From Anaerohalosphaeraceae bacterium (GTDB taxonomy: Bacteria; Planctomycetota; Phycisphaerae; Sedimentisphaerales; Anaerohalosphaeraceae): DNA of 64,000 nt. Both the position numbers and the translations under genes were made by a program. The DNA is taken from the NCBI GenBank assembly GCA_963675525.2, contig CAXXSL010000001.1:256001-320000 (forward strand), in the 5' to 3' direction. Below the pieces are notes generated by a model. It did not search any database. It had not been told where the DNA came from and worked only from the letters and a program-made list of their open reading frames with translations. Positions 24,184 to 36,601 of this stretch are shown here, piece by piece; the first letter of the stretch is position 1, and the number at the start of each line of letters is the position of its first letter.

Positions 24184-25245
24184 ATGAGCAAACAGGTAAT
24201 TATTCATACCGATGGCGGCAGCCGAGGCAACCCCGGCCCCGGGGGAGCGGGATTTACTCTGGAAGACGAAAAGGGCAATGCGCTGAAGTCCTGCGGGCTT
24301 TATCTGGGAAGAACCACGAATAATGTTGCCGAATACACCGCCATTAAAGAAGCACTGAAAGCCGCCGGAGAGCTCGGCGCCGAATCCGTTAAGTTATTCA
24401 GCGACAGCGAATTGCTGGTGCGGCAGTTGAACGGTCAATACAAAGTCAAAAGCCCGAATCTCAAACCGTTTTACGCCGACTGCATGGAACTGTTGGGTGA
24501 GTTTAAGGCATGGCAGGTGATGCATGTGTACCGTGAGCAAAACTCCCGCGCCGATGCACTGGCCAACGAGGCGATGGATAAAAAAGCGGACGTTCAGTAT
24601 GGCCCCGCGGCGGCTGCAGAGCCCAAGGGAAAAAAGCTTCGGCTGGGAATTCTGCTCAGCGGCGGCGGACGGACGATGGTGAATATTCAGGACGAAATTA
24701 ATGCGGGACGCCTGAATGCCGAGATCGTACTGGTCATTAGTTCCCGTTCGGAAGTCAAAGGCAACGAACGTGCCTGTAAAATAGGACTGGAGCCCGTTAT
24801 CATTCGTAAGAAGGATTATCCTGAGCTTGCCGATTTCAGTAAGCGTATTGAAAAGGAACTGGATAAAGCTAACGTCGATCTGGTTGTTCAGGCCGGTTGG
24901 CTGTGTCTGTGGCATATCCCGGCCGATTATAAGAACCGCGTGATGAATATTCACCCGGCACTGCTGCCCAGTTTCGGCGGGCAGGGCATGTGGGGCCATC
25001 ATGTCCATGAGGCGGTACTGAAAGCCGGCTGCAAGGTTTCCGGCTGCACGGTACATTTCTGCACGAACGAATACGACGCCGGACCGATCATCGTCCAGCG
25101 GACCTGTGAAGTTAAGGATGATGACGATGCGGACACATTGGCATCACGCGTATTTCAGCAGGAATGCCTGGCCTACCCGGAGGCGATTCAGCTATTCGCC
25201 GAGGATCGTCTGCAGGTTTCCGGCGGCATTGTTAAACGCATTTAA
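24184..25245 (+). CDS. purN: Fusion of ribonuclease HI and phosphoribosylglycinamide formyltransferase
   Basis: N-terminus: DGGSRGNPG, TNNVAEY, DSELL, REQNSRADALAN. C-terminus: LLSGGGR, NIHPALLPSFGG, SGCTVHF, YDAGPII. Confidence 0.92.
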   Translation: MSKQVIIHTDGGSRGNPGPGGAGFTLEDEKGNALKSCGLYLGRTTNNVAEYTAIKEALKAAGELGAESVKLFSDSELLVRQLNGQYKVKSPNLKPFYADCMELLGEFKAWQVMHVYREQNSRADALANEAMDKKADVQYGPAAAAEPKGKKLRLGILLSGGGRTMVNIQDEINAGRLNAEIVLVISSRSEVKGNERACKIGLEPVIIRKKDYPELADFSKRIEKELDKANVDLVVQAGWLCLWHIPADYKNRVMNIHPALLPSFGGQGMWGHHVHEAVLKAGCKVSGCTVHFCTNEYDAGPIIVQRTCEVKDDDDADTLASRVFQQECLAYPEAIQLFAEDRLQVSGGIVKRI

Positions 25246-25293: not shown

Positions 25294-26688
25294 ATGTTTG
25301 GACAATCCATTCAGCATCGTTTATTAAAATTGAGCCGACCGGACCATATAGAGCATCGCAGTGATCGTGCGTTATTGGTTTGGAAAGATATTCCGCACTG
25401 GATGGTGGTCGATGGGGAGATGAAGACATTTCTCTTTTTGTTCGAAGATACCCGGAATTTTTCTGAAATGATCCGCAAAAACCCCCATCTTCAGCCTCAT
25501 CAAAAAGAACTGCTTGGCGTTGTTAAAGATCTGCATAAAAAAGGCGTTTTGACCAGTGTTGATGTCGCAGAGCTTAAGAATAAATCATTGAATTCGCTTT
25601 TGCCGATTGAAAACATCGCATGGAATCTTACCCACACATGCAATCTGCGGTGCCGGTATTGCTATTATGCCGACAGCCTGAATCATTCAAACGGCAGCGA
25701 GCTTTCGGCGGATGAAGTCATCAGCTTTCTTAAAATCGTCAAGCCGTTTATTTCCAAACGCGCAACCCTGACGGTATTGGGTGGTGAGCCGCTGTTGTAT
25801 CCTGATAAGCTGATTGAAGTCTGCCGATTTGCACGCAAGATGCGAATGAATCCGCTGATCTCCACGAATGGGACGCTGATCGATGATGCCTTTGCCAAAG
25901 AAGCCAAGCGGATTGGGCTGGAGATTCAGGTTTCTCTTGACGGTCCCGATGCCGAAATGAATGACCCGTTACGGGGTGCGGGAACATTTGAGAAAATCCG
26001 AAAAGGCGTGGCGATTCTGAATAAGCATGATGTGCATACGATTCTCAGTATGGTGTGCTGTCGAAGTAATTTCGATTCGTTGAAAGATTTTCTGGATTTG
26101 GCAATTGAATGGGGCGTTGCCGAGGCCCGGTTTATCCCGCTTAAACAGATGGGCGGGGCCAAGTCCGAAGCGATGGAAATGGTTTCGCATTATGAAATTG
26201 TTACGAAGGCGTATCAACTGCTTAAAGCCTATCCAGCGTATCGGGATTTACTGGGGCGGGATTGCCTGTCGATTCTTGCCAATACCTGCCGGTATTCAGC
26301 CCGGCGGGATTCCTGCGGCACCGGTTTGCAGACGTTTTTGCTGGATGCCGACGGGGCGTTGTATCCGTGCCTGAATCTGAATCAACCGGCGTATGTGTTC
26401 GGTAACATCCGCGATAAATCGCTCGATTTTGCGAAAATTTGGAAAAAACACGAATCCCTGGGTAACATTCGCACCTGCACAAGCGTCCATAATACAGAGA
26501 GGCCTTGCAGCAACTGTTTGGTGAAGTATTGGTGCCTGGGCGGATGCCGGGGCGAGACTGTGGTCAATACGGGGGATTTAAAAGCTCAAAGTATCCATTG
26601 CGATGACTTAAAAAAGACGATCCTTGAAATATTCTGGATTCTTGCGGAAAATCCCGATATGATAAAAGCATACGAGCAAATGGGCTAA
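25294..26688 (+). CDS. Radical SAM/SPASM domain protein with putative N-terminal RRE
   Basis: CNLRCRYC, GGEPLL, ISTNGTL and QVSLDG. SPASM CGTG...DGALYPC and CSNC-x5-CLGGC...C. A roughly 100-aa N-terminal extension ends in DLHKKGVL. Confidence 0.93.
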   Translation: MFGQSIQHRLLKLSRPDHIEHRSDRALLVWKDIPHWMVVDGEMKTFLFLFEDTRNFSEMIRKNPHLQPHQKELLGVVKDLHKKGVLTSVDVAELKNKSLNSLLPIENIAWNLTHTCNLRCRYCYYADSLNHSNGSELSADEVISFLKIVKPFISKRATLTVLGGEPLLYPDKLIEVCRFARKMRMNPLISTNGTLIDDAFAKEAKRIGLEIQVSLDGPDAEMNDPLRGAGTFEKIRKGVAILNKHDVHTILSMVCCRSNFDSLKDFLDLAIEWGVAEARFIPLKQMGGAKSEAMEMVSHYEIVTKAYQLLKAYPAYRDLLGRDCLSILANTCRYSARRDSCGTGLQTFLLDADGALYPCLNLNQPAYVFGNIRDKSLDFAKIWKKHESLGNIRTCTSVHNTERPCSNCLVKYWCLGGCRGETVVNTGDLKAQSIHCDDLKKTILEIFWILAENPDMIKAYEQMG

Positions 26689-26699
26689 AGGAGCGTACA

Positions 26700-27008
26700 A
26701 TGCAGGTATTTGGGCAAAGTTCGACAGTGCTGGCCGAGTCGAAACCTCCCTATGTTCATCTGGGATACATGTCCGCCTGTCCAAGCACGGGATTCGGAGT
26801 ATTCGATTTTGAGTTATTTGGTCCCGGGGTAATTTTGTTTTTGGTGGGTTATCTGATCGCGATGAAGATCAATTACGGTTGGCTCATCGGCGGCATCGCG
26901 GGGTTGTTAAAGAAATTCGGGCTTCTCAAAATTCTGGCAGCGATTCTATCTATGCTGTTGCTTTTTGCGACCGTCTTTGTATGCTATTTCGCGTGGATGT
27001 TTGATTAA
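26700..27008 (+). CDS. Small membrane protein with GQS...PYVHLGY leader (putative rSAM substrate)
   Basis: AAGGAG RBS overlaps the rSAM stop. Leader shared with the next gene, followed by 2-3 hydrophobic segments. Confidence 0.8.
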   Translation: MQVFGQSSTVLAESKPPYVHLGYMSACPSTGFGVFDFELFGPGVILFLVGYLIAMKINYGWLIGGIAGLLKKFGLLKILAAILSMLLLFATVFVCYFAWMFD

Positions 27009-27056
27009 AGAAGACATGAATACAAGGACGCAAGTATACAAGGAAGGATAGCCGGC

Positions 27057-27827
27057 ATGGAAATCCTCGGACAAAGCACGAAAGCAACCACACAGCATCC
27101 TTATATGCATTTGGGATATCTGGCAGCAAGCAACCGGGATGTATTTATGATTCCTTTAATTCCCGGATTATTATTGCTTGTTTTTGGGAGCCTTCAATTA
27201 TATTTTCGCAAGAAACGTTATTTCAAAGCAAGTATTGCTTCAATTATTGGGGGACTTATATTCCTTACGATGGCGATTTCGTTTTTCTTTGATAAACCGA
27301 ATATACCTTCAAGGATTCTAACCAGTATAAATTATCACGCTTTACACATATCATTGTCAAGTTTCGCCAAAGAGAACGACAATAACCTGCCAGATTCAAA
27401 GCACTGGTGTGATTTGTTAATTTCCGGAACTTATGCAGAACCGAAATATTTCACTCTTTCGGGTGTTAAAGAAGGTGAAAGTGCATATGCTTTGAATGAG
27501 AATGTCCTTAATCTGACATTGTCTGAAATTCCGGCGGATATGGTGCTTTTATTTGAAACCAATCTGGGGATTGAAGAGGAGCGGACAGGCAGTTTTCTTT
27601 CAAGAGATTACGTAAAGTCTTTGGGGATCGAAAAAGATCATAAGATATTCCAGAATCGCTGGAACCAAGTTGGCGGTGCGGAGGATATTACGACTGAATA
27701 TCACAAGGGAGAGGGGGCTTGTGTTTTGTTTGCCGGTGGACATTGCGAATTTGTAAAGACAGGAGATATTGCGACATTAAAATGGCATCCCGGAGAATCC
27801 GAGATGCCATTGGAAATATCTCAATAG
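27057..27827 (+). CDS. Membrane-anchored pilin-head-like protein with GQS...PYMHLGY leader and H-X9-DG-like motif
   Basis: Leader, two TM segments, then LSSFAKENDNNLP...WCDLL, YALN, MVLLFE, NQVGG and HKGEGACVLFAGGH. Confidence 0.8.
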   Translation: MEILGQSTKATTQHPYMHLGYLAASNRDVFMIPLIPGLLLLVFGSLQLYFRKKRYFKASIASIIGGLIFLTMAISFFFDKPNIPSRILTSINYHALHISLSSFAKENDNNLPDSKHWCDLLISGTYAEPKYFTLSGVKEGESAYALNENVLNLTLSEIPADMVLLFETNLGIEEERTGSFLSRDYVKSLGIEKDHKIFQNRWNQVGGAEDITTEYHKGEGACVLFAGGHCEFVKTGDIATLKWHPGESEMPLEISQ

Positions 27828-27871: not shown

Positions 27872-28945
27872 TTATTCTTTCCCATCCCAGAGGTAGAGCA
27901 GCCGCGGGGCGGCGAGTTTGTCCAGCAGTTCGCTTTCGATATTGATCGTTCCTTTTTTGCTCTGTGCTCCCATTATTGACCAGACAGAGAATTTTTGATT
28001 GTACTCAACAATCCGCGCATTGGATAGATGCGCCATTTCTTCTATTTTCGTGACCGCGGCGTCAAAGTAGCCGACCTCGTCGATCAGGCCCTTATCCATG
28101 GCTTCGGGAGCGGTGAAAATGCTGCCGTCGGCCAGTTGACGCACCTCGTGTTCGGCCAGGTTTGGGCGGCCTTCATCGACCAGGTTCACAAACCGGTCAT
28201 ACGCCGGGGTGATGATCTTTTCGCTGAGATACGTCTTTTGTTCGTCTGTCGGTTCATGGAACATACTGGGCCAGTCTTTGCGTTTGCCGCTCTTGATCGT
28301 GACCGGATTGATGCCGAGCTTTTCTTCGAGCAGTTCCTTGACGACCATATAGTTCATGATGACGCCGATGGAGCCGGTGATAGTGGTCGGTTCGGCCATG
28401 ATCTCATCGCAGGCGACCGCCGAGTAATAGCCGCCGGACGCGGCGACCGATTGCATGAATCCAAGGACGGGCTTGTTCGTGGTTTCTTTAAACCGGCTGA
28501 TACAGTAGTGGATCTGATCGCTGGCTGAAACCCCGCCGCCGGGACTGTTGATGCGGAGGATCAGGGCTTTTACATTGGTGTCATTTTCCGCACGTTCGAC
28601 CTGCATGTTGACCCACTTGCTCATTTCGCCGTCAATGATGCCGACGAGGTTGATGACCGCGATCTTCTGACGATGTGAACCATCCATCAGGATTCGTTCT
28701 TCCAGACCGTCATCGTGATAGCCGCCCCCGCTTCCGCCGGAGAGAACAGCACCCATGGCGATGATACCAATAAACATAATGCCGTTGGCCAGAACCGACA
28801 GGGTGATCACAATGCCCCAGAATATCTTCCAGCCGGAGCCCTTTTTCTTTTTGGGGTATGGGTTATACATCGGGGCCGTGAAGTCCGGGATGTTTGTGGC
28901 CGGCGGGGTCTGGGGGGCATTAGGGTCCTGTGTAAAATCGTCCAT
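27872..28945 (-). CDS. sppA: Signal peptide peptidase SppA (S49)
   Basis: INSPGG, AASGGYY, TITGSIGV and KSGKRKD, with an N-terminal TM anchor. Confidence 0.95.
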   Translation of the reverse strand: MDDFTQDPNAPQTPPATNIPDFTAPMYNPYPKKKKGSGWKIFWGIVITLSVLANGIMFIGIIAMGAVLSGGSGGGYHDDGLEERILMDGSHRQKIAVINLVGIIDGEMSKWVNMQVERAENDTNVKALILRINSPGGGVSASDQIHYCISRFKETTNKPVLGFMQSVAASGGYYSAVACDEIMAEPTTITGSIGVIMNYMVVKELLEEKLGINPVTIKSGKRKDWPSMFHEPTDEQKTYLSEKIITPAYDRFVNLVDEGRPNLAEHEVRQLADGSIFTAPEAMDKGLIDEVGYFDAAVTKIEEMAHLSNARIVEYNQKFSVWSIMGAQSKKGTINIESELLDKLAAPRLLYLWDGKE

Positions 28946-30601: not shown

Positions 30602-31920
30602 CTAATCTTTCGGCAGTTTAAACTCGTATTCATGGATTTCATTGTCAAATGAAATGTTATCCGGTGGTTTAATGTCAAGTTTCTCGGTCTTTTTTTTGAT
30701 TTGACTCCGCGATAAATCCTCGCCCTGACATTTTAATTTAAAACCATCCTCTGTTTTGATGATTAGAAAGGGTTTATTGCTGAACAGATCTTTCGGGCTG
30801 TTGAAGGGTATTGTTTTTGGGATTTTCTTTGTTTTTGGATATTGAATTAGAAGTCTTATTCCGGCTTCCAAAGCATTCAGTTTTGTGCGGATTTTTGTGT
30901 CGATGGAAAACACTGTTGTGCTGTATGATCCATAAATACTTGTAAATAAAAAATCACAATTTTCGATATATTCGATGTCGACATCTTCAAATGCAGGAAT
31001 TTGTCTGCCAGAAATATCGAATTTTTTATCAAGGACATCTATATACTCTATGAAGTATTGTTTGAATTGGTTGCGAAGTTCATCTCCAAGTTCACTACAC
31101 TTTTGCACTGCCTGAGGGTAGGGCAGGTCAAGATAACTTTGACGTTTCAGCATGTAATCTCGGTAAAACTTCAGATTACGTATATAGAAATCTTCGCTTA
31201 ATTTTTGAACAGGAATTCCCAAGTGTCGGTCCAATATGTGTCTTTATAGATGTATTCCTTGGGGTGCGTGAGGATTCTTGTGGTGTATGCAATTTCGTGA
31301 TCTATCGTATCTTTGTATGATATTTTTTGACGTTTCGATTCATTTCTGATAAAAGTTTTTGCCATATAGAGGTCTGTGACTTGGCAGTTGGTGTGACGAT
31401 TTAGGTATTCACGGATATCATCATAGGTCATTGATCTGAGGCCCAGAGCAACTAAATGGTCAATTAAGACGCCTGAGTCTATGTGTGAAGCAAGTTGGAG
31501 GACTGGTTCGAATAAGGTGTTAATTCCTATATCCGGGTCTTTTCTTTCTTTATACTTGCCATCTGCGAGAAGTAATAATGTCGTCTTTTTGGCTTTGCTT
31601 AAATAGGGGTTAACCGAGTAGATGCCATCTGCCAATGGATCAAACTGCCAGTCACAATGTTCGATTTGTGCGGCTTTTTTTAGCAGGTCGATGACGGGCT
31701 GCTGGCGGATGAGGTATTGTTCTACCTGCGGAGTGATTTTGACATCTCCGGTTGTATAATCGGACAGGTCAAAACCGTTGGGTTCTTCGTAGAGGTCGAA
31801 GGCTTTCTGGTACCAGTAGGCGGCGTTGTCGGGGGTGAAGTTGTTTGGGTCGTATTTGGCGAATGCGGAGAGTGATAGTATCAAAATAGCCAACACGCAT
31901 AATTTTACCCTGTTTGGCAT
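30602..31920 (-). pseudogene. Secreted DNAA-motif protein split by a single-base frameshift (paralog of 35421-36581)
   Basis: The 5' ORF has a signal peptide, PDNAAYWY and CDW. The 3' ORF has PKDLFSNKPF...GFKLKC...EYEFK. Together they align to the intact paralog. The frames join if the T5 at 31202-31206 were T6. Confidence 0.8.
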
Positions 31921-31954
31921 TGTTCTATTCCTTCTCTTGAACCCTTTCAGGGTT

Positions 31955-32026
31955 ATCGGGCGACTCACGTCGCCGCGCTTTTGTTTATCTTCATCCATGC
32001 CCACGGTTGGCGTGGGCATGGCACCC
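31955..32026. repeat. Two adjacent dispersed REP-like units
   Basis: 31955-31982 is identical to 39265-39292. catgcccacg...gcgtgggcatggcaccc (31996-32026) recurs at 286-315. Confidence 0.8.
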
Positions 32027-32150
32027 ATTTACTTTGTACTCTATGGTATAAACGCCGGAAAGTCAAAGGTGTGGCGAAAAAATGGATTTTTGCGTTTTTT
32101 TGTGAACTTTTCGAGGGGGCCATGTTACTTTATGATGGTAAGACTCGAAG

Positions 32151-32660
32151 ATGATGAAACGGGAAACCGTACAATCCGGCCGGATCGCGATGCTTGAAGC
32201 CCTGTATGCTGAGCATGGTCCACATATTCTGCGATATTTGAATCGTATCGTCGGGCCTAAGAGCTCTGAAGATGTGCTTCAGGATACGTTTGTGCAGGCT
32301 CTTTGTTATATTGAAAGACTTAGCGATGTGAACATTCCAAGGGCATGGCTGTTTCGTGTGGCTCGCAATCTGGCGATGAATGTCCTGCGGAAAAAGAAAA
32401 TGGCCACCCATATCGACCTTGACGGCCTTGTTCACCCGGCTTCGCTTGAAGATCCCAGGTTGGCAACAATGCGGCGTGCGATTTACAAGCTGTCCGACAA
32501 TCATCGCGAAACCATTATGCTGCGATGGTACGATCAGCTTAGCTATAAAGAGATTTCTCAGGTTCAGGATATTTCAATCGGTACCGTCCGTTCGCGATTG
32601 CACAATTCACTGGGACAATTGCGAATGCAAATGGATATAGAACTGGCGGTCGATCCATAA
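32151..32660 (+). CDS. ECF RNA polymerase sigma factor
   Basis: SEDVLQDTF, AWLFRVARN and LSYKEIS...GTVRSRLH. Confidence 0.93.
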   Translation: MMKRETVQSGRIAMLEALYAEHGPHILRYLNRIVGPKSSEDVLQDTFVQALCYIERLSDVNIPRAWLFRVARNLAMNVLRKKKMATHIDLDGLVHPASLEDPRLATMRRAIYKLSDNHRETIMLRWYDQLSYKEISQVQDISIGTVRSRLHNSLGQLRMQMDIELAVDP

Positions 32661-32678
32661 CAAAGAAAGGAACGTAAC

Positions 32679-33206
32679 ATGAACAGAGACCTTTTAGAAC
32701 AATTACTGATGGATCAGGCATTGAACGAACTGTCGCCGGAATCGACAGCGCTGCTGGATGCATACCTGGGCGATCATCCGGAAATGCATTCTCTTGCCGA
32801 TTCGATTCGCGAAACGGTTGCGATTGGCGAAAGGGCTGTTCATGCCGAACTGCCGACACGTTTACCTCCGCTGCCGAAAGAGAAGCTGTTTTCGCACAAA
32901 CGAACGGCTCGGTGGTCGATGACGGCTCGATGGGGATCGGTCGCGGCCTCGTTGATAATCGGATTTGGTCTCGGGATATCCGCAACGCTTTTGCAGAATA
33001 AGCCCTCACAAACAGATTCCGACACGATCGCTTACCATGTTCAATCGCAGCCGGTATCGGGTGGGCTCGAGACTGCCCGGGCATTCTGGTCGAGTCAAAC
33101 ATACATGGATCGCTATCAAAAGAACCGCAAGGACCGGACCCAAAGAAATGAAAATACGGAATTACAAAAACAAATCCAACAATTCAAAAAGAGAGGTCTA
33201 TTATGA
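32679..33206 (+). CDS. Putative anti-sigma factor
   Basis: Directly follows the ECF sigma. N-terminal NELSPE..ALLDAYL helix bundle and a single TM (VAASLIIGFGLG). Confidence 0.75.
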   Translation: MNRDLLEQLLMDQALNELSPESTALLDAYLGDHPEMHSLADSIRETVAIGERAVHAELPTRLPPLPKEKLFSHKRTARWSMTARWGSVAASLIIGFGLGISATLLQNKPSQTDSDTIAYHVQSQPVSGGLETARAFWSSQTYMDRYQKNRKDRTQRNENTELQKQIQQFKKRGLL

Positions 33207-34594
33207 ATAAGAAATTTATCGTCATTTCCACAATCATAGCAGGCGTGTGCTTATTTCTGGTCGGCTGCCATCCGAAAACCATTACCTGGTCACCGGATGG
33301 ACAGTGGGCGGCATTTTGCAATGATTATGGATTGTACTTTACGGATGGGCAAGGTGAAATCTCTTCACGCATGGCCGAAAAGGCCTATCGAGCCGAGTGG
33401 TTTTCGGACGGCAAACGACTGGCGATCGAACAATTTGTCACGTTGACCAGTTGGCAGCAGGTACAAAACACGGTCTCTGAAGACTATCGCGATAAATTTA
33501 TTCAGTGTGCAGAGGGTTTGTTGGCAGTCAAAAATAAGCGAGATTGGGATGAGAAGACGAACATGCTGGAACATATGAATTTTCTTGATGAGGATGAGCT
33601 GGATGCGGTTCAGTTATATATCCGGGATATGGCTTCGGGCGGTTTTCCGAAGGACGTGATTGCGTCATGGGGAGACTCTATTGAATTTGACTACCATTTC
33701 CTGCGGATTGGAACGTGGGACGGTGCCACTTTTACGATGGGTGAGCCGTTATGGGGTTCGCCGGAGCGAATCTGGGATATGCGGATCTCCGCAAAGGGCC
33801 ATGTTGTTGCTTTTACCTCGGCCTTCCCCGGCGACTTTGACGAGGGGACCAGTTCTTCGCTTTGGGCCGCTGATGTCGAAACGAAAGAAGTTGTGCTGTT
33901 GGACAAGAATTCGTCGCTGTATCCGGATTGGGATGCTGCGGGCACCCGTTTGTTTTATGTGCGTTCGATTGGCAAAGAAAGCAGCGATAACCCGCTTGGC
34001 ACGCTGCTGAGCCGCCAGATTTGCGGCCAAGACGGCAACTTGTTAAGCGATTTGCCGGAACCGCAGTCATTAGCGGGTTTGGTGGCCGGTGAATTTACGA
34101 AGGTGCGGTGTTTGCCGGATGGGCGAATTGTGTTCTCTTCGATGGAGGTTACGCTGCCGGTTATCGGAAAGGATATTCCTGAGCAAAAGCAGTTGTTTGT
34201 ACTGGACCTGCAGCGGCAGTCCACGATTACCCGCCTGATTCCCCGGAGCGAACAGAGCAAAACAGAAGGCTATAGTCTTGATCACTTCGAGATCAGCCCG
34301 GACCAAAAGCAGATTTCAATCCCGGATGATGAAGGGCGTGTGATGGTCCTGACCATCGCAACGGGGGAGTTTGTTGTTTTGCAGGCACAGAAGGTCGGAG
34401 ACATCCGGACGGTTCCGGTGTGGCGCTATCCTGATGAGTTATGCTATATCGATGAGTTGAAGGGCGGGCTTTTGGGCGACAAGACAAGAAAAGAAATTAT
34501 GCTTCGGAAGGTTACCCCGGACGGCGAATGGAGCGACCCGCGCGCAATCAGCAAGGACTGGTCCAAAGAAGTTCGCCAGGTCGTATTGGATTAG
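33203..34594 (+). CDS. Lipoprotein with TolB/WD40-like beta-propeller repeats
   Basis: Lipobox LVGC. WSPDG, WFSDG, PDWD and ISPD repeats. Confidence 0.8.
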   Translation: MNKKFIVISTIIAGVCLFLVGCHPKTITWSPDGQWAAFCNDYGLYFTDGQGEISSRMAEKAYRAEWFSDGKRLAIEQFVTLTSWQQVQNTVSEDYRDKFIQCAEGLLAVKNKRDWDEKTNMLEHMNFLDEDELDAVQLYIRDMASGGFPKDVIASWGDSIEFDYHFLRIGTWDGATFTMGEPLWGSPERIWDMRISAKGHVVAFTSAFPGDFDEGTSSSLWAADVETKEVVLLDKNSSLYPDWDAAGTRLFYVRSIGKESSDNPLGTLLSRQICGQDGNLLSDLPEPQSLAGLVAGEFTKVRCLPDGRIVFSSMEVTLPVIGKDIPEQKQLFVLDLQRQSTITRLIPRSEQSKTEGYSLDHFEISPDQKQISIPDDEGRVMVLTIATGEFVVLQAQKVGDIRTVPVWRYPDELCYIDELKGGLLGDKTRKEIMLRKVTPDGEWSDPRAISKDWSKEVRQVVLD

Positions 34595-35420: not shown

Positions 35421-36581
35421 TTATTTTGCGATTTTAAACGTGTATTCGTTGATTTTACCTTCGATTTCGGCTTGGCGGCAGCGGAGGGTAAAGCCCGTAT
35501 CGGTTTTTTCGTATTCAAACGGTTGTCCGCTGAAAAGGTCTTTGGGGAAAGCGGCGGGCAGTTCGTCCGGCAGGTTTCCTTTTTTAGCGTAGTAGCGATA
35601 GAGTTGAATGGCGGCTGACAGTGCGTTTTGGTGTGTTCTGCGGCGTATATCAATATCGCATACCTTTGTGGTTGCCGGAGCAAGAAGGACCGAGCCGAAA
35701 GCTTCCTTTTTGCCGGCTTCGTAATCCTTTTCGGGAACCTTCTCTAATTCCTGAAATGTTGTTATTGCCTGCTTATAAGGCTGGTCCAGGGCGGCGATAT
35801 ATTTATCAAAAAGTTGCTGATAGTACTCCGCAGAAGCCGCTAAGAATTCCTCAGAACCTTCGGTTAGCAAGGGCAGGTCCTTTTTCAGTTCTTCATTGGG
35901 GGCAACCTGTTCTTCTAAAAGCTTTTTTTTCTCCGGGGTCATTTGCATAATTGCATCTGCATAATATCGTCTTTCATTCAACATTGCCGGCTTGAGATCG
36001 AGCTTGTTATATTCGGGACGTTCGAGTTCTCGCTGAAGTTCTGTTAACAGTTTCTCATCCGATCCCATGACGTTGAGAACATCACCAATGGCATCATAGG
36101 TTAAAGCTGTCATCGCAGTTCCAACGAGATACGAGATAAATGTGTCATTGCCGACGTGCCCGGCCATTCGCAAAACGACCAGGCATTGATCCATGGCCTC
36201 CTGAGTTTGACCTTCCTGTTTTTTGAGCTGTGCATCCGCCAGCATGATGTATGTAAATTGCCGCATGGTTGCCAGGTAGGGTATCTTCAGTGCCAGGCCC
36301 TGGGAAAAGTCCAGTCCCCAGTCACAGTTCGGAATTTCCGACGCTGTTTGAAGAGCATCAATCAATAGCCGTTTTTCCCCCAGATACTGTTGAATCTCAT
36401 CGCTGACTTTGATTTTCCCTTTCGCGGCATCACGAAGCTGATCTCCTAGCGGAGCTTCGGGCCGCGAAAAATTGACCATGCATTTATAATAGACCAAGGC
36501 GGCGTTATCCGGGGGATAGGCTTGGGCGGTGTTTGCTGCAAACAGACAGAGCAGGAGTATCAGTATGGCTGTCTTTTTCAT
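35421..36581 (-). CDS. Secreted DNAA-motif helical protein with pseudopilin-like C-terminus
   Basis: Signal peptide ending AQA, YPPDNAALVY, CDWGLD and GNLPDEL...PKDLFSGQPFEY. Confidence 0.85.
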   Translation of the reverse strand: MKKTAILILLLCLFAANTAQAYPPDNAALVYYKCMVNFSRPEAPLGDQLRDAAKGKIKVSDEIQQYLGEKRLLIDALQTASEIPNCDWGLDFSQGLALKIPYLATMRQFTYIMLADAQLKKQEGQTQEAMDQCLVVLRMAGHVGNDTFISYLVGTAMTALTYDAIGDVLNVMGSDEKLLTELQRELERPEYNKLDLKPAMLNERRYYADAIMQMTPEKKKLLEEQVAPNEELKKDLPLLTEGSEEFLAASAEYYQQLFDKYIAALDQPYKQAITTFQELEKVPEKDYEAGKKEAFGSVLLAPATTKVCDIDIRRRTHQNALSAAIQLYRYYAKKGNLPDELPAAFPKDLFSGQPFEYEKTDTGFTLRCRQAEIEGKINEYTFKIAK

Positions 36582-36601
36582 TATTTGTTTTCCTTTCAAG
36601 T

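Follow-up and report, generated by a model that had tools for sequence, protein, structure and literature searches.

A radical SAM/SPASM enzyme clade and a short N-terminal tag on membrane proteins in bacteria and Thorarchaeota-related archaea

The window analysed here, a stretch of 64,000 nucleotides from an Anaerohalosphaeraceae genome (GenBank assembly GCA_963675525.2, contig CAXXSL010000001.1, positions 256,001 to 320,000), contains a gene for a radical S-adenosylmethionine (SAM) enzyme with a SPASM region, followed on the same (+) strand by two genes whose membrane-protein products begin with a similar short sequence, the tag. This arrangement had been described in an earlier note on this DNA, and the open reading frames (ORFs), their N-termini and the positions of the shared motif were all confirmed from the ORF list of the window.

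The enzyme gene (25294..26688, +) encodes a putative maturase of 464 residues, assigned from Pfam matches, an alignment and an AlphaFold2 (AF2) model. Its residues 1-90 (25294..25563, +) form a domain like the recognition element (RRE) of RiPPs, peptides synthesized ribosomally and modified after translation, to judge from the AF2 secondary structure and an alignment with the enzymes CteB and TigE, and RRE strand 3 (residues 35-40; 25396-25413, +) pairs with the tag according to the contacts of the complex model described below. The alignment places the CxxxCxxC motif of the SAM cluster at C116, C120 and C123 (25639..25662, +), and Pfam and the alignment together place the SPASM region, with C332, C341, C359, C405 (Cys or His), C408, C414, C418 and C436, at 26287..26601 (+). 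Tagged membrane protein 1 (26700..27008, +; 102 residues) consists of the tag and two hydrophobic helices, with no soluble cargo; its tag (26700..26777, +) comprises the leader strand MQVFGQS, the core PYVHLGY (26748-26768, with His20 and Tyr23) and then MSA. Tagged membrane protein 2 (27057..27827, +; 256 residues) is built from a tag, a first transmembrane helix (TM1), a basic RKKR loop, a second helix (TM2) and a head domain. Its tag (27057..27128, +), made up of the leader strand MEILGQS, the core PYMHLGY (27099-27119, with His18 and Tyr21) and LAA, is of low confidence in the single-chain AF2 model of the protein (predicted local distance difference test, pLDDT, under 50), and its hairpin, at about residues 30-48 and 57-78 with the basic loop (27144..27290, +), is placed by AF2 helices and charge statistics. 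The head (27306..27791, +) is of the H-X9-DG type (DUF1559-like), a label taken partly from the JGI names of its relatives; here the motif reads H216-X9-AG, where the relatives have H-X9-DG. Purine-rich putative ribosome-binding sites precede gene 1 (26688..26693, +, overlapping the enzyme stop codon) and gene 2 (27040..27047, +), and a promoter and terminator scan gave no excess over shuffles.

In a six-frame translation of the 4.12-Mb genome PYxHLGY occurs twice, both times at this locus, and residue frequencies give a chance expectation of 0.044 per genome. A third in-genome match, PYIHMGY (C1:132022), lies within a larger gene in another frame, scores below 10 bits and was rejected. The motif had been thought to be conserved at the protein level, and indeed five of the nine motif residues common to both tags use different synonymous codons. 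Moreover, paralogue pairs within loci (n = 44) show a median identity of 74% in the tag and 28% in the rest. These synonymous differences, together with the comparison of tag and rest, rule out a duplication of the tag at the DNA level.

With a tag profile of 62 rows, a search of 1.84 billion representatives gave at least 247 protein clusters at E ≤ 0.001; the statistics below rest on the 150 proteins listed among these clusters, a set that is biased toward the consensus. The consensus reads M-[KR]-I-x(9-12)-[YF]-x-H-[LV]-[GA]-Y-x-[AS]-A, followed by a transmembrane hairpin, and each locus holds one to five tagged genes, mostly downstream of the enzyme, also upstream or convergent. In 149 of these proteins the match starts no later than residue 3, and the tag His stands at position 17-18 in 143. 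All 150 carry the core [YF]-x-H-[LVIM]-[GA]-Y, with Tyr (138) or Phe (12) as first aromatic; the Tyr three places after the His, Tyr(+3), is never Phe. The core is followed by [TLIV]-[AS]-A, with Ala or Ser at position +5 in 144; Gly directly follows the core Tyr in three proteins, and nine have any Cys within the core window, none of them conserved. Variants found by their gene position beside the enzyme, which are less biased toward the consensus, are YLHLAY in Lentisphaerae and Riflebacteria, FFHGMY in archaea and YLHAAY in one planctomycete genome (G326); H-x-x-Y is kept in all of them, and also in LLHVGY and SAHMGY, at one locus each, both without the first aromatic. The His is followed by L, V, M or I; archaeal and variant tags have G or A at this position.

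As far as these alignments reach, His and Tyr(+3) are the only invariant residues of the tag. The Tyr/His core proposed earlier therefore stands as regards this pair; its first aromatic is replaceable, and the rest of PYxHLGY varies. The core is conserved more strongly than the leader strand, which differs by clade (MKIVAQS, MRIEYEG or MKIVGQS). GQS had been taken for the recognition element and a PG-led helix for a shared trait, but GQS occurs within the first 12 residues of just 13 of the 150 proteins and PG ahead of TM1 in just 13 (PEP in 2, GP in 11), so both were rejected as defining elements, and a variable hydrophobic beta-strand takes the place of GQS. No NCBIfam model was matched by the 62 tags, and no Pfam or NCBIfam family match covers the tag region in 29 or in the 150 full-length tagged proteins, in keeping with the earlier impression of a motif outside described families. 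At one locus (L036:11343-11802, -) two minimal tagged proteins of 70 and 75 residues lie on the opposite strand and converge on the enzyme gene. A tagged ORF of 123 residues at another (L008:12783-13151) has no hydrophobic helix after the tag in its first 70 residues, unlike the 150 database proteins.

To relate tag and enzyme, 45 GTDB loci were fetched by the enzyme alone and their neighbouring genes were then read. Tags adjoin the enzyme at 39 of these 45 loci, compared with none of 78 distant radical SAM loci from a metagenome scan, which agrees with the proposal of a portable tag on membrane proteins that travels with one enzyme clade. As for the six tagless GTDB loci, three lie on contigs that end inside the enzyme; a fourth contig ends 317 nt past the enzyme, and that genome's other enzyme copy is tagged; the fifth (L047, 10001-10422) holds an enzyme pseudogene in which a large internal deletion joins an RRE strand to the SPASM region; and the sixth is a partial, distant enzyme match in a Thermoplasmatales genome. 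The metagenome scan, which returned mostly distant radical SAM enzymes and was used as a negative control, gave 80 loci: the 78 already mentioned, a duplicate of a tagged locus, and one tagless locus (35% identity) on a 2.2-kb contig.

Four genome surveys place the two elements in nearly the same genomes. Within the host family, the enzyme is present in 3 of 70 genomes and strong tags in the same 3, with four weak tag matches (E 0.006-0.06). A Planctomycetota sample has the enzyme in 7 of 401 genomes, strong tags in 3 and two weak partial matches elsewhere; G326, one of the four other enzyme genomes, carries its variant tag upstream of the enzyme. For the phylum of an Armatimonadia genome the counts are 11 of 301 for the tag and 10 of 301 for the enzyme, all 10 in common, the eleventh tag lying at a contig start; 9 of the 11 tag-positive genomes were training genomes. 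For the phylum of a Thorarchaeota genome, the enzyme occurs in 3 of 201 genomes with strong tags in the same 3, one of which is new and has two tags. Every strong tag match in the genome searches lies beside an enzyme gene or at a contig start. Five weak tag matches were rejected: one lies inside an unrelated ORF (G027), two cover positions 2-18 only, near integrase-like sequence (G197, G183), one is in a 37-residue frame (G777), and an archaeal one (G796, L210:1444-1690) is an off-frame FLHIGY over the remnant of an enzyme 3' end, probably a coincidence. Both several bacterial phyla (Planctomycetota, Armatimonadota, Lentisphaerota and others) and Thorarchaeota-related archaea have the pairing, and we consider it close to certain that enzyme and tag form a coupled system.

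The enzyme scores above the Pfam cut-offs for Radical_SAM and SPASM, and PF04055 and PF13186 are matched by 60 of 60 homologues at E ≤ 0.05. None of the NCBIfam cut-offs is exceeded among the best 25 of 103 matches, which include StsB (the best; 144.9 bits, cut-off 625), PapB (113.5, cut-off 340), DynA (NF041298; 106.2, cut-off 450) and TIGR03974 (80.5, cut-off 425). There are 348 relatives at E ≤ 1e-30, and the 120 listed share at least 41% identity over most of the length. The enzyme is a member of a discrete RRE-radical SAM/SPASM clade. Its C116 and C120 are invariant, as is C123 in 60 homologues. In an alignment of 40 enzymes, 38 of which adjoin a tag while 2 are on contigs ending inside the gene, Q212, S214, R279, D323, C341 and T347 are invariant and the eight SPASM-region cysteines are kept, with His for C405 in six. 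In the complex model, C332, which aligns with a cysteine of CteB, is in contact with residue 7 of the tag. The enzyme also carries LGGEP, at a site where triceptide enzymes presumably have a His.

The AF2 model of the enzyme has a pLDDT of 93, and its residues 1-90 form three strands plus helices. It superposes on CteB with Z 29.7 over 406 residues at 5.6 Å, aligned from the N-terminus, and on TigE with Z 26.7, TMq 0.74 and 408 residues at 3.5 Å (model 3-454 on 3-463, RRE included). Because the superposition starts at the N-terminus on these two RRE-bearing proteins, the fold supports an RRE in the enzyme, an assignment made on the whole-chain model. The earlier proposal of a PqqD-like RRE of about 100 residues is thus borne out in its fold and not in its family, since Pfam PqqD is matched by none of 60 homologues; the Atlas lead for the enzyme is a cluster with 16% PqqD.

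The complex was modelled from the enzyme with SAM and three clusters and from the first 31 residues of protein 2. The score was 0.87, against 0.12 for the best control; of solved pairs 116 of 157 reach the mark applied, and of mismatched pairs 2 of 215, counts that apply only roughly to this job. The runs have at least 68% of contacts in common, with a partner pLDDT of at least 55. In this model, tag residues 3-7 lie antiparallel on enzyme residues 35-40 and also touch residues 447-452, and tag residues 14-22 belong to the confident interface, which includes the barrel/SPASM surface. The tag is thus predicted to bind the RRE of the enzyme as a strand, which fits the enzyme-leader pairing suggested earlier. 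Leader binding as an extra RRE strand is the canonical mode of RREs (PMC11002830).

In each of the 150 tagged proteins the tag is followed by one or more hydrophobic helices (two in 133 proteins), with a median linker of 14 residues. The loop between the helices is more positive than the N-terminal tail in 125 of 132 hairpins and, since the more positive side of a membrane protein stays inside (the positive-inside rule), tag and C-terminal head alike would lie on the outer face. In archaeal carriers one helix is followed by a tail, which is basic in most. Cargoes of at least 50 residues (n = 125) fall, in 114 cases, into one single-linkage, GspG-like cluster; among the 150 listed carriers, 7 score above the Pfam cut-off for PF08334 (GspG) and 1 for PF07596, a few bear a head that is H-X9-DG/DUF1559-like, a TPR or a domain like a methyltransferase, and 25 have little cargo or, like window protein 1, none. 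Judged from sequence, most cargoes are pseudopilin-like heads. The complete divergence described earlier beyond the shared N-terminus therefore does not extend to all cargoes. Neither a prepilin G-x-x-x-x-E site at TM2 nor a lipobox at the ends of the transmembrane helices is present in any of the 132 hairpin proteins. Basic-Gly-aromatic stretches in some loops (L014:3430-4056, L020:2225, P0187, P0244) recall degenerate prepilin sites, without Glu at +5.

The head of protein 2 has six untagged paralogues in the same genome, five of them in two clusters (G000 C13:149189-153710, C9:4650, C16:835580-837355), and is untagged in 7 of 16 database relatives. Because this head also exists without the tag, the tag was grafted onto an existing head family, as had been suspected. 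A fold search with protein 2 returned generic helical hairpins only (Z up to 8.4), the query hairpin having filled the matches, and the Atlas leads are unnamed clusters and weak GspG/DUF1559 names.

To look for partner genes, all ORFs of the window and of the 45 loci were clustered. They yield one further recurring operon gene, which encodes a CPBP intramembrane protease and lies immediately upstream of the enzyme gene in 11 of 13 loci of the Armatimonadia clade; one of the other two is truncated and one is without it. The EExxxRG, FxxxH and HxxWN motifs of these proteases are intact, and the proteins match CPBP models, all NCBIfam matches being below cut-off. At one locus (L022:7411-10004) the CPBP protease gene is present three times in tandem, again immediately upstream. 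The window genome has five PF02517 genes elsewhere, which say little because the family is matched in 11 of 14 control genomes. SppA (27872-28945), considered as a partner protease in the window, is on the opposite strand and common only to two same-genus loci, and was treated as backbone; an oxidoreductase cluster occurs in five loci at scattered positions.

Among the closest known counterparts is the SCIFF ranthipeptide maturase CteB with its substrate CteA (PDB 5WGG, 5WHY; TIGR03974), which has the same architecture of RRE, radical SAM and SPASM, is both the best structural match of the enzyme and its best PDB sequence match, and binds its leader as an extra RRE strand. However, the two share 19% identity, the TIGR03974 score lies far below its cut-off (as given above), the tag core has no conserved Cys, and the precursor here is a membrane protein. 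Near the catalytic site the enzyme has Y124, L162 (or V161), S190, S214, L360 and N361, where CteB has F, F, T, S, H and Q (PMC10288494). Compared with sactipeptide and ranthipeptide maturases as a group (CteB, PapB, StsB), the donor Cys is not conserved and the NCBIfam cut-offs are missed. The dynobactin maturase DynA (NF041298) is a radical SAM/SPASM enzyme that makes an N-Csp3 His-Tyr link in a ribosomal peptide (PMC10288494, PMC11002830); in dynobactin, a small free peptide, the link covers three residues, whereas here the DynA cut-off is missed, the His and Tyr are three apart (i,i+3) in an N-terminal tag, and a hydrophobic helix follows in 150 of 150 precursors. Triceptide synthases (XncB, OscB, MscB, YxdB, HaaB, YhhB) are SPASM radical SAM enzymes acting on three-residue motifs with Tyr, His or Phe (PMC11002830); the tag differs in its invariant i,i+3 pair and its membrane-protein precursors, and its core holds two motifs compatible with i,i+2 links. 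The cyclopropylglycine synthases TigE and TvgB (PDB 8VPO) give the best whole-chain superposition at 18-19% identity, but the tag has no repeated TVGG-type motif and its aliphatic core position varies. For spliceotides (PlpX) the Xaa-Tyr-Gly motif is lacking, the order here being Gly/Ala-Tyr-[TLIV].

On the carrier side, DAG-RiPPs and RiPP-lipoprotein hybrids are RiPP-modified precursors, some of protein size, that are sent to the membrane (PMC13056109). Their enzymes are MNIOs, and their precursors carry a lipoprotein signal and, at the C-terminal end, a Cys motif (PMC13056109), unlike the radical SAM enzyme, N-terminal tag and lipobox-free hairpins found here; the main text of that paper contains the terms radical SAM, rSAM and SPASM zero times. 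The cargo heads resemble the GspG pseudopilin and DUF1559/H-X9-DG proteins, with the difference that the tag and TM1 stand where a class III signal would be. Substrates of exosortases and archaeosortases (PEP-CTERM type) are alike in the transmembrane helix and basic cluster; the signature motif is absent, with PEP in 2 of 150, and the tagged proteins have no relevant NCBIfam match. The Armatimonadia proteases may be likened to MroQ, which we take to be of the CPBP family, and to the CPBP sorting proteases MrtJ and MrtS, although the window locus has no such protease. MroQ, an M79 protease integral to the membrane, takes the leader off a cyclised peptide, AgrD (PMC10885120). Thioether, splicease, lipoprotein, prepilin and sortase readings were all rejected, as their defining features are absent. 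The system works like an RRE-dependent radical SAM RiPP maturase and falls outside the ranthipeptide/sactipeptide, dynobactin, spliceotide and DAG-RiPP groups.

Taking these comparisons into consideration, we favour, by a little over an even chance, a RiPP-like maturation of integral membrane precursors in which RRE-guided cross-linking of the core yields a surface-anchored, sometimes released, peptide. According to the complex model and known RRE logic, the first ~10 tag residues would bind the RRE as a fourth strand and the [YF]-x-H-[LV]-[GA]-Y core would be fed into the barrel. A 5'-deoxyadenosyl radical would then take a hydrogen from the core and a cross-link of -2 Da would form; that the enzyme modifies the core in some way is very probable. 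In the likeliest link, a ring nitrogen of the His would be bonded to C-beta of Tyr(+3), in analogy to the His-Tyr bond of dynobactin but over four residues. It is favoured because it explains the two invariant residues and a Phe tolerance confined to the first aromatic, and by this analogy we hold it tentatively, at somewhat less than even chances. A quinone-methide route would need a phenol; we found no paper that pairs dynobactin with a quinone methide.

The N-out hairpin suggested by the charges would then insert with the modified tag outside, usually beside a pseudopilin-like head; since such a hairpin puts the tag outside, modification must precede insertion. Outward display of the tag is probable. 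In Armatimonadia, gene context suggests that the CPBP protease would cut near Y-x-[AS]-A or trim the leader, so that a cyclic peptide is released or unmasked as a surface ligand or signal, and we put proteolytic release in at least some lineages at even odds. As to function, we favour a displayed or shed cyclic peptide that would act as recognition ligand or signal; a surface role would suit the several tagged paralogues, in which the tag stays constant and the heads vary. Metal or redox binding by the His-Tyr unit is a weaker idea.

Several points weigh against this interpretation. The co-occurrence of motif and enzyme breaks down in three Planctomycetota genomes (G092, G135, G152), which have the enzyme and no tag nearby, nor genome-wide at E<0.1. 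In a quick tree their enzymes form one clade nested among the tagged enzymes; S252, R322, Q346 and N361 are changed in them, and one lacks CxxxCxxC in the alignment. This subclade is a genuine exception. Most tag-positive genomes are not independent because the tag profile was built from these loci, and many surveyed genomes are incomplete or related to one another; the independent evidence comes mainly from several hundred genomes with neither element, plus G654, G661, G930 and the variant in G326. Similar RRE-leader complexes, such as that of CteB, have been solved, so the pass of the complex model may reflect likeness, and its contact list gives no residue facing SAM. Whereas linkage, conservation and fold are observed, leader binding comes from that model, and chemistry, topology and processing are inferred. 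The DynA model gives the enzyme 106 bits against a cut-off of 450, and the topology of the carriers was derived solely by a script for hydropathy and charge. Finally, beyond the Armatimonadia clade the 45 loci hold a single weak CPBP match (archaeal L048), and the 23 kb surrounding the enzyme in the window contain none. The tagless subclade (L153, L155, L156, L196, L197) lies downstream of a conserved exported protein, with an ExbD-like gene too in two of the three cases.

Other chemistries would account for parts of the pattern. Read as aromatic-x-H, two residues and Y-x-[AS], the core could carry two i,i+2 cyclophanes of triceptide type, from the ring of [YF](-2) to the His C-beta and from the ring of Tyr(+3) to the C-beta of Ala/Ser(+5), for a total of -4 Da. 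Triceptides join an aromatic at i to the C-beta of i+2, and links that contain Tyr, His, Phe, Ala and Ser are known (PMC11002830), and the Ala or Ser at +5 in 144 of 150 proteins is as this idea would have it. It is nevertheless unlikely, as the -2 aromatic is absent at two loci (LLHVGY, SAHMGY), the best 25 of 103 NCBIfam matches include no XyeB, GrrM or FxsB model, the enzyme has LGGEP in place of the presumed His, and Tyr(+3) is never Phe, yet triceptide enzymes accept Phe. The same strict Tyr would suit a radical scission there, by tyramine excision or by backbone or C-alpha-C-beta cleavage, which would process or remove the tag; a dedicated protease is missing from most loci, and PlpX, with an RRE partner, removes tyramine from Xaa-Tyr-Gly (PMC11002830). 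Here, however, the order is Gly-Tyr with a small residue two places later, the invariant His is left unexplained, and the CPBP protease co-encoded in Armatimonadia would be partly redundant, so that we regard scission as quite improbable.

A mass-silent or side-chain-only change, such as epimerisation or desaturation at L/V-G, would reduce His and Tyr to binding determinants. SPASM/twitch epimerases and Val/Ile cyclopropane synthases exist, and one of the latter kind, TigE, is the best whole-chain superposition; but its identity is low, as noted, and the position after the His is the variable part of the core (L, V, M, I; G or A), which leaves this idea a shade less probable than scission. Slightly less probable again is that the tag is an unmodified docking or targeting signal, an enzyme tether or an export signal, and that the enzyme has its substrate elsewhere. 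A tagless subclade exists and RRE binding alone need not mean turnover; against this, tag residues 14-22 contact the barrel/SPASM surface in the model, the core is conserved more than the leader strand, the sole other gene conserved across loci is for a CPBP protease, and the tagless subclade has altered active-site residues.

Returning to the His-Tyr(+3) cross-link on a membrane-anchored precursor, its most complete form would be an undescribed membrane-anchored RiPP class of bacteria and Thorarchaeota-related archaea, in which the RRE-radical SAM enzyme makes a four-residue His-Tyr macrocycle on a 24-residue N-terminal tag before insertion, the tag serving as a transferable cassette on pseudopilin-like and other membrane proteins, with surface display and, in some lineages, CPBP release. 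That all of this holds together is doubtful. Enzyme clade and tag are unnamed in the searched Pfam and NCBIfam libraries and in the literature searched, where no paper dealt with HLGY together with radical SAM or linked a radical SAM/SPASM enzyme and a leader to pilin modification, subscription atlases of radical SAM RiPPs lying outside the search; HLGY, HVGY, HLAY and HGMY are likewise absent from the spreadsheet supplement of PMC10288494 (~3,400 precursor rows). The analysis defines an enzyme clade and a 24-residue substrate tag, whose chemistry can be put directly to the test using one enzyme and a short peptide fusion. If true, the His-Tyr(+3) link would be a new ring size for radical SAM cross-linking, and the tag a short, portable N-terminal element with which protein termini could be cyclised. 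RiPP logic would extend to integral membrane and pseudopilin-like proteins, which peptide mining by short ORFs would likely overlook, and such a system would be placed in Thorarchaeota-related archaea.

Some neighbouring genes of the window are also worth recording. Upstream of the enzyme, a 353-residue ORF (24184-25245, +) fuses an RNase H domain to a formyltransferase (PurN-like) domain, by Pfam, a fusion also found in both same-genus loci. At 30602-32028 (-), two ORFs that overlap (31198-32028 and 30602-31234) correspond to the N- and C-terminal halves, respectively, of a 392-residue protein at 35421-36599; the pair is probably one frameshifted paralogue of an unannotated exported family. 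Between them, at 32151-34594 (+), and separate from the system described here, one run of genes comprises an ECF (extracytoplasmic function)-sigma-like gene, an anti-sigma-like membrane protein and a beta-propeller lipoprotein-like gene.

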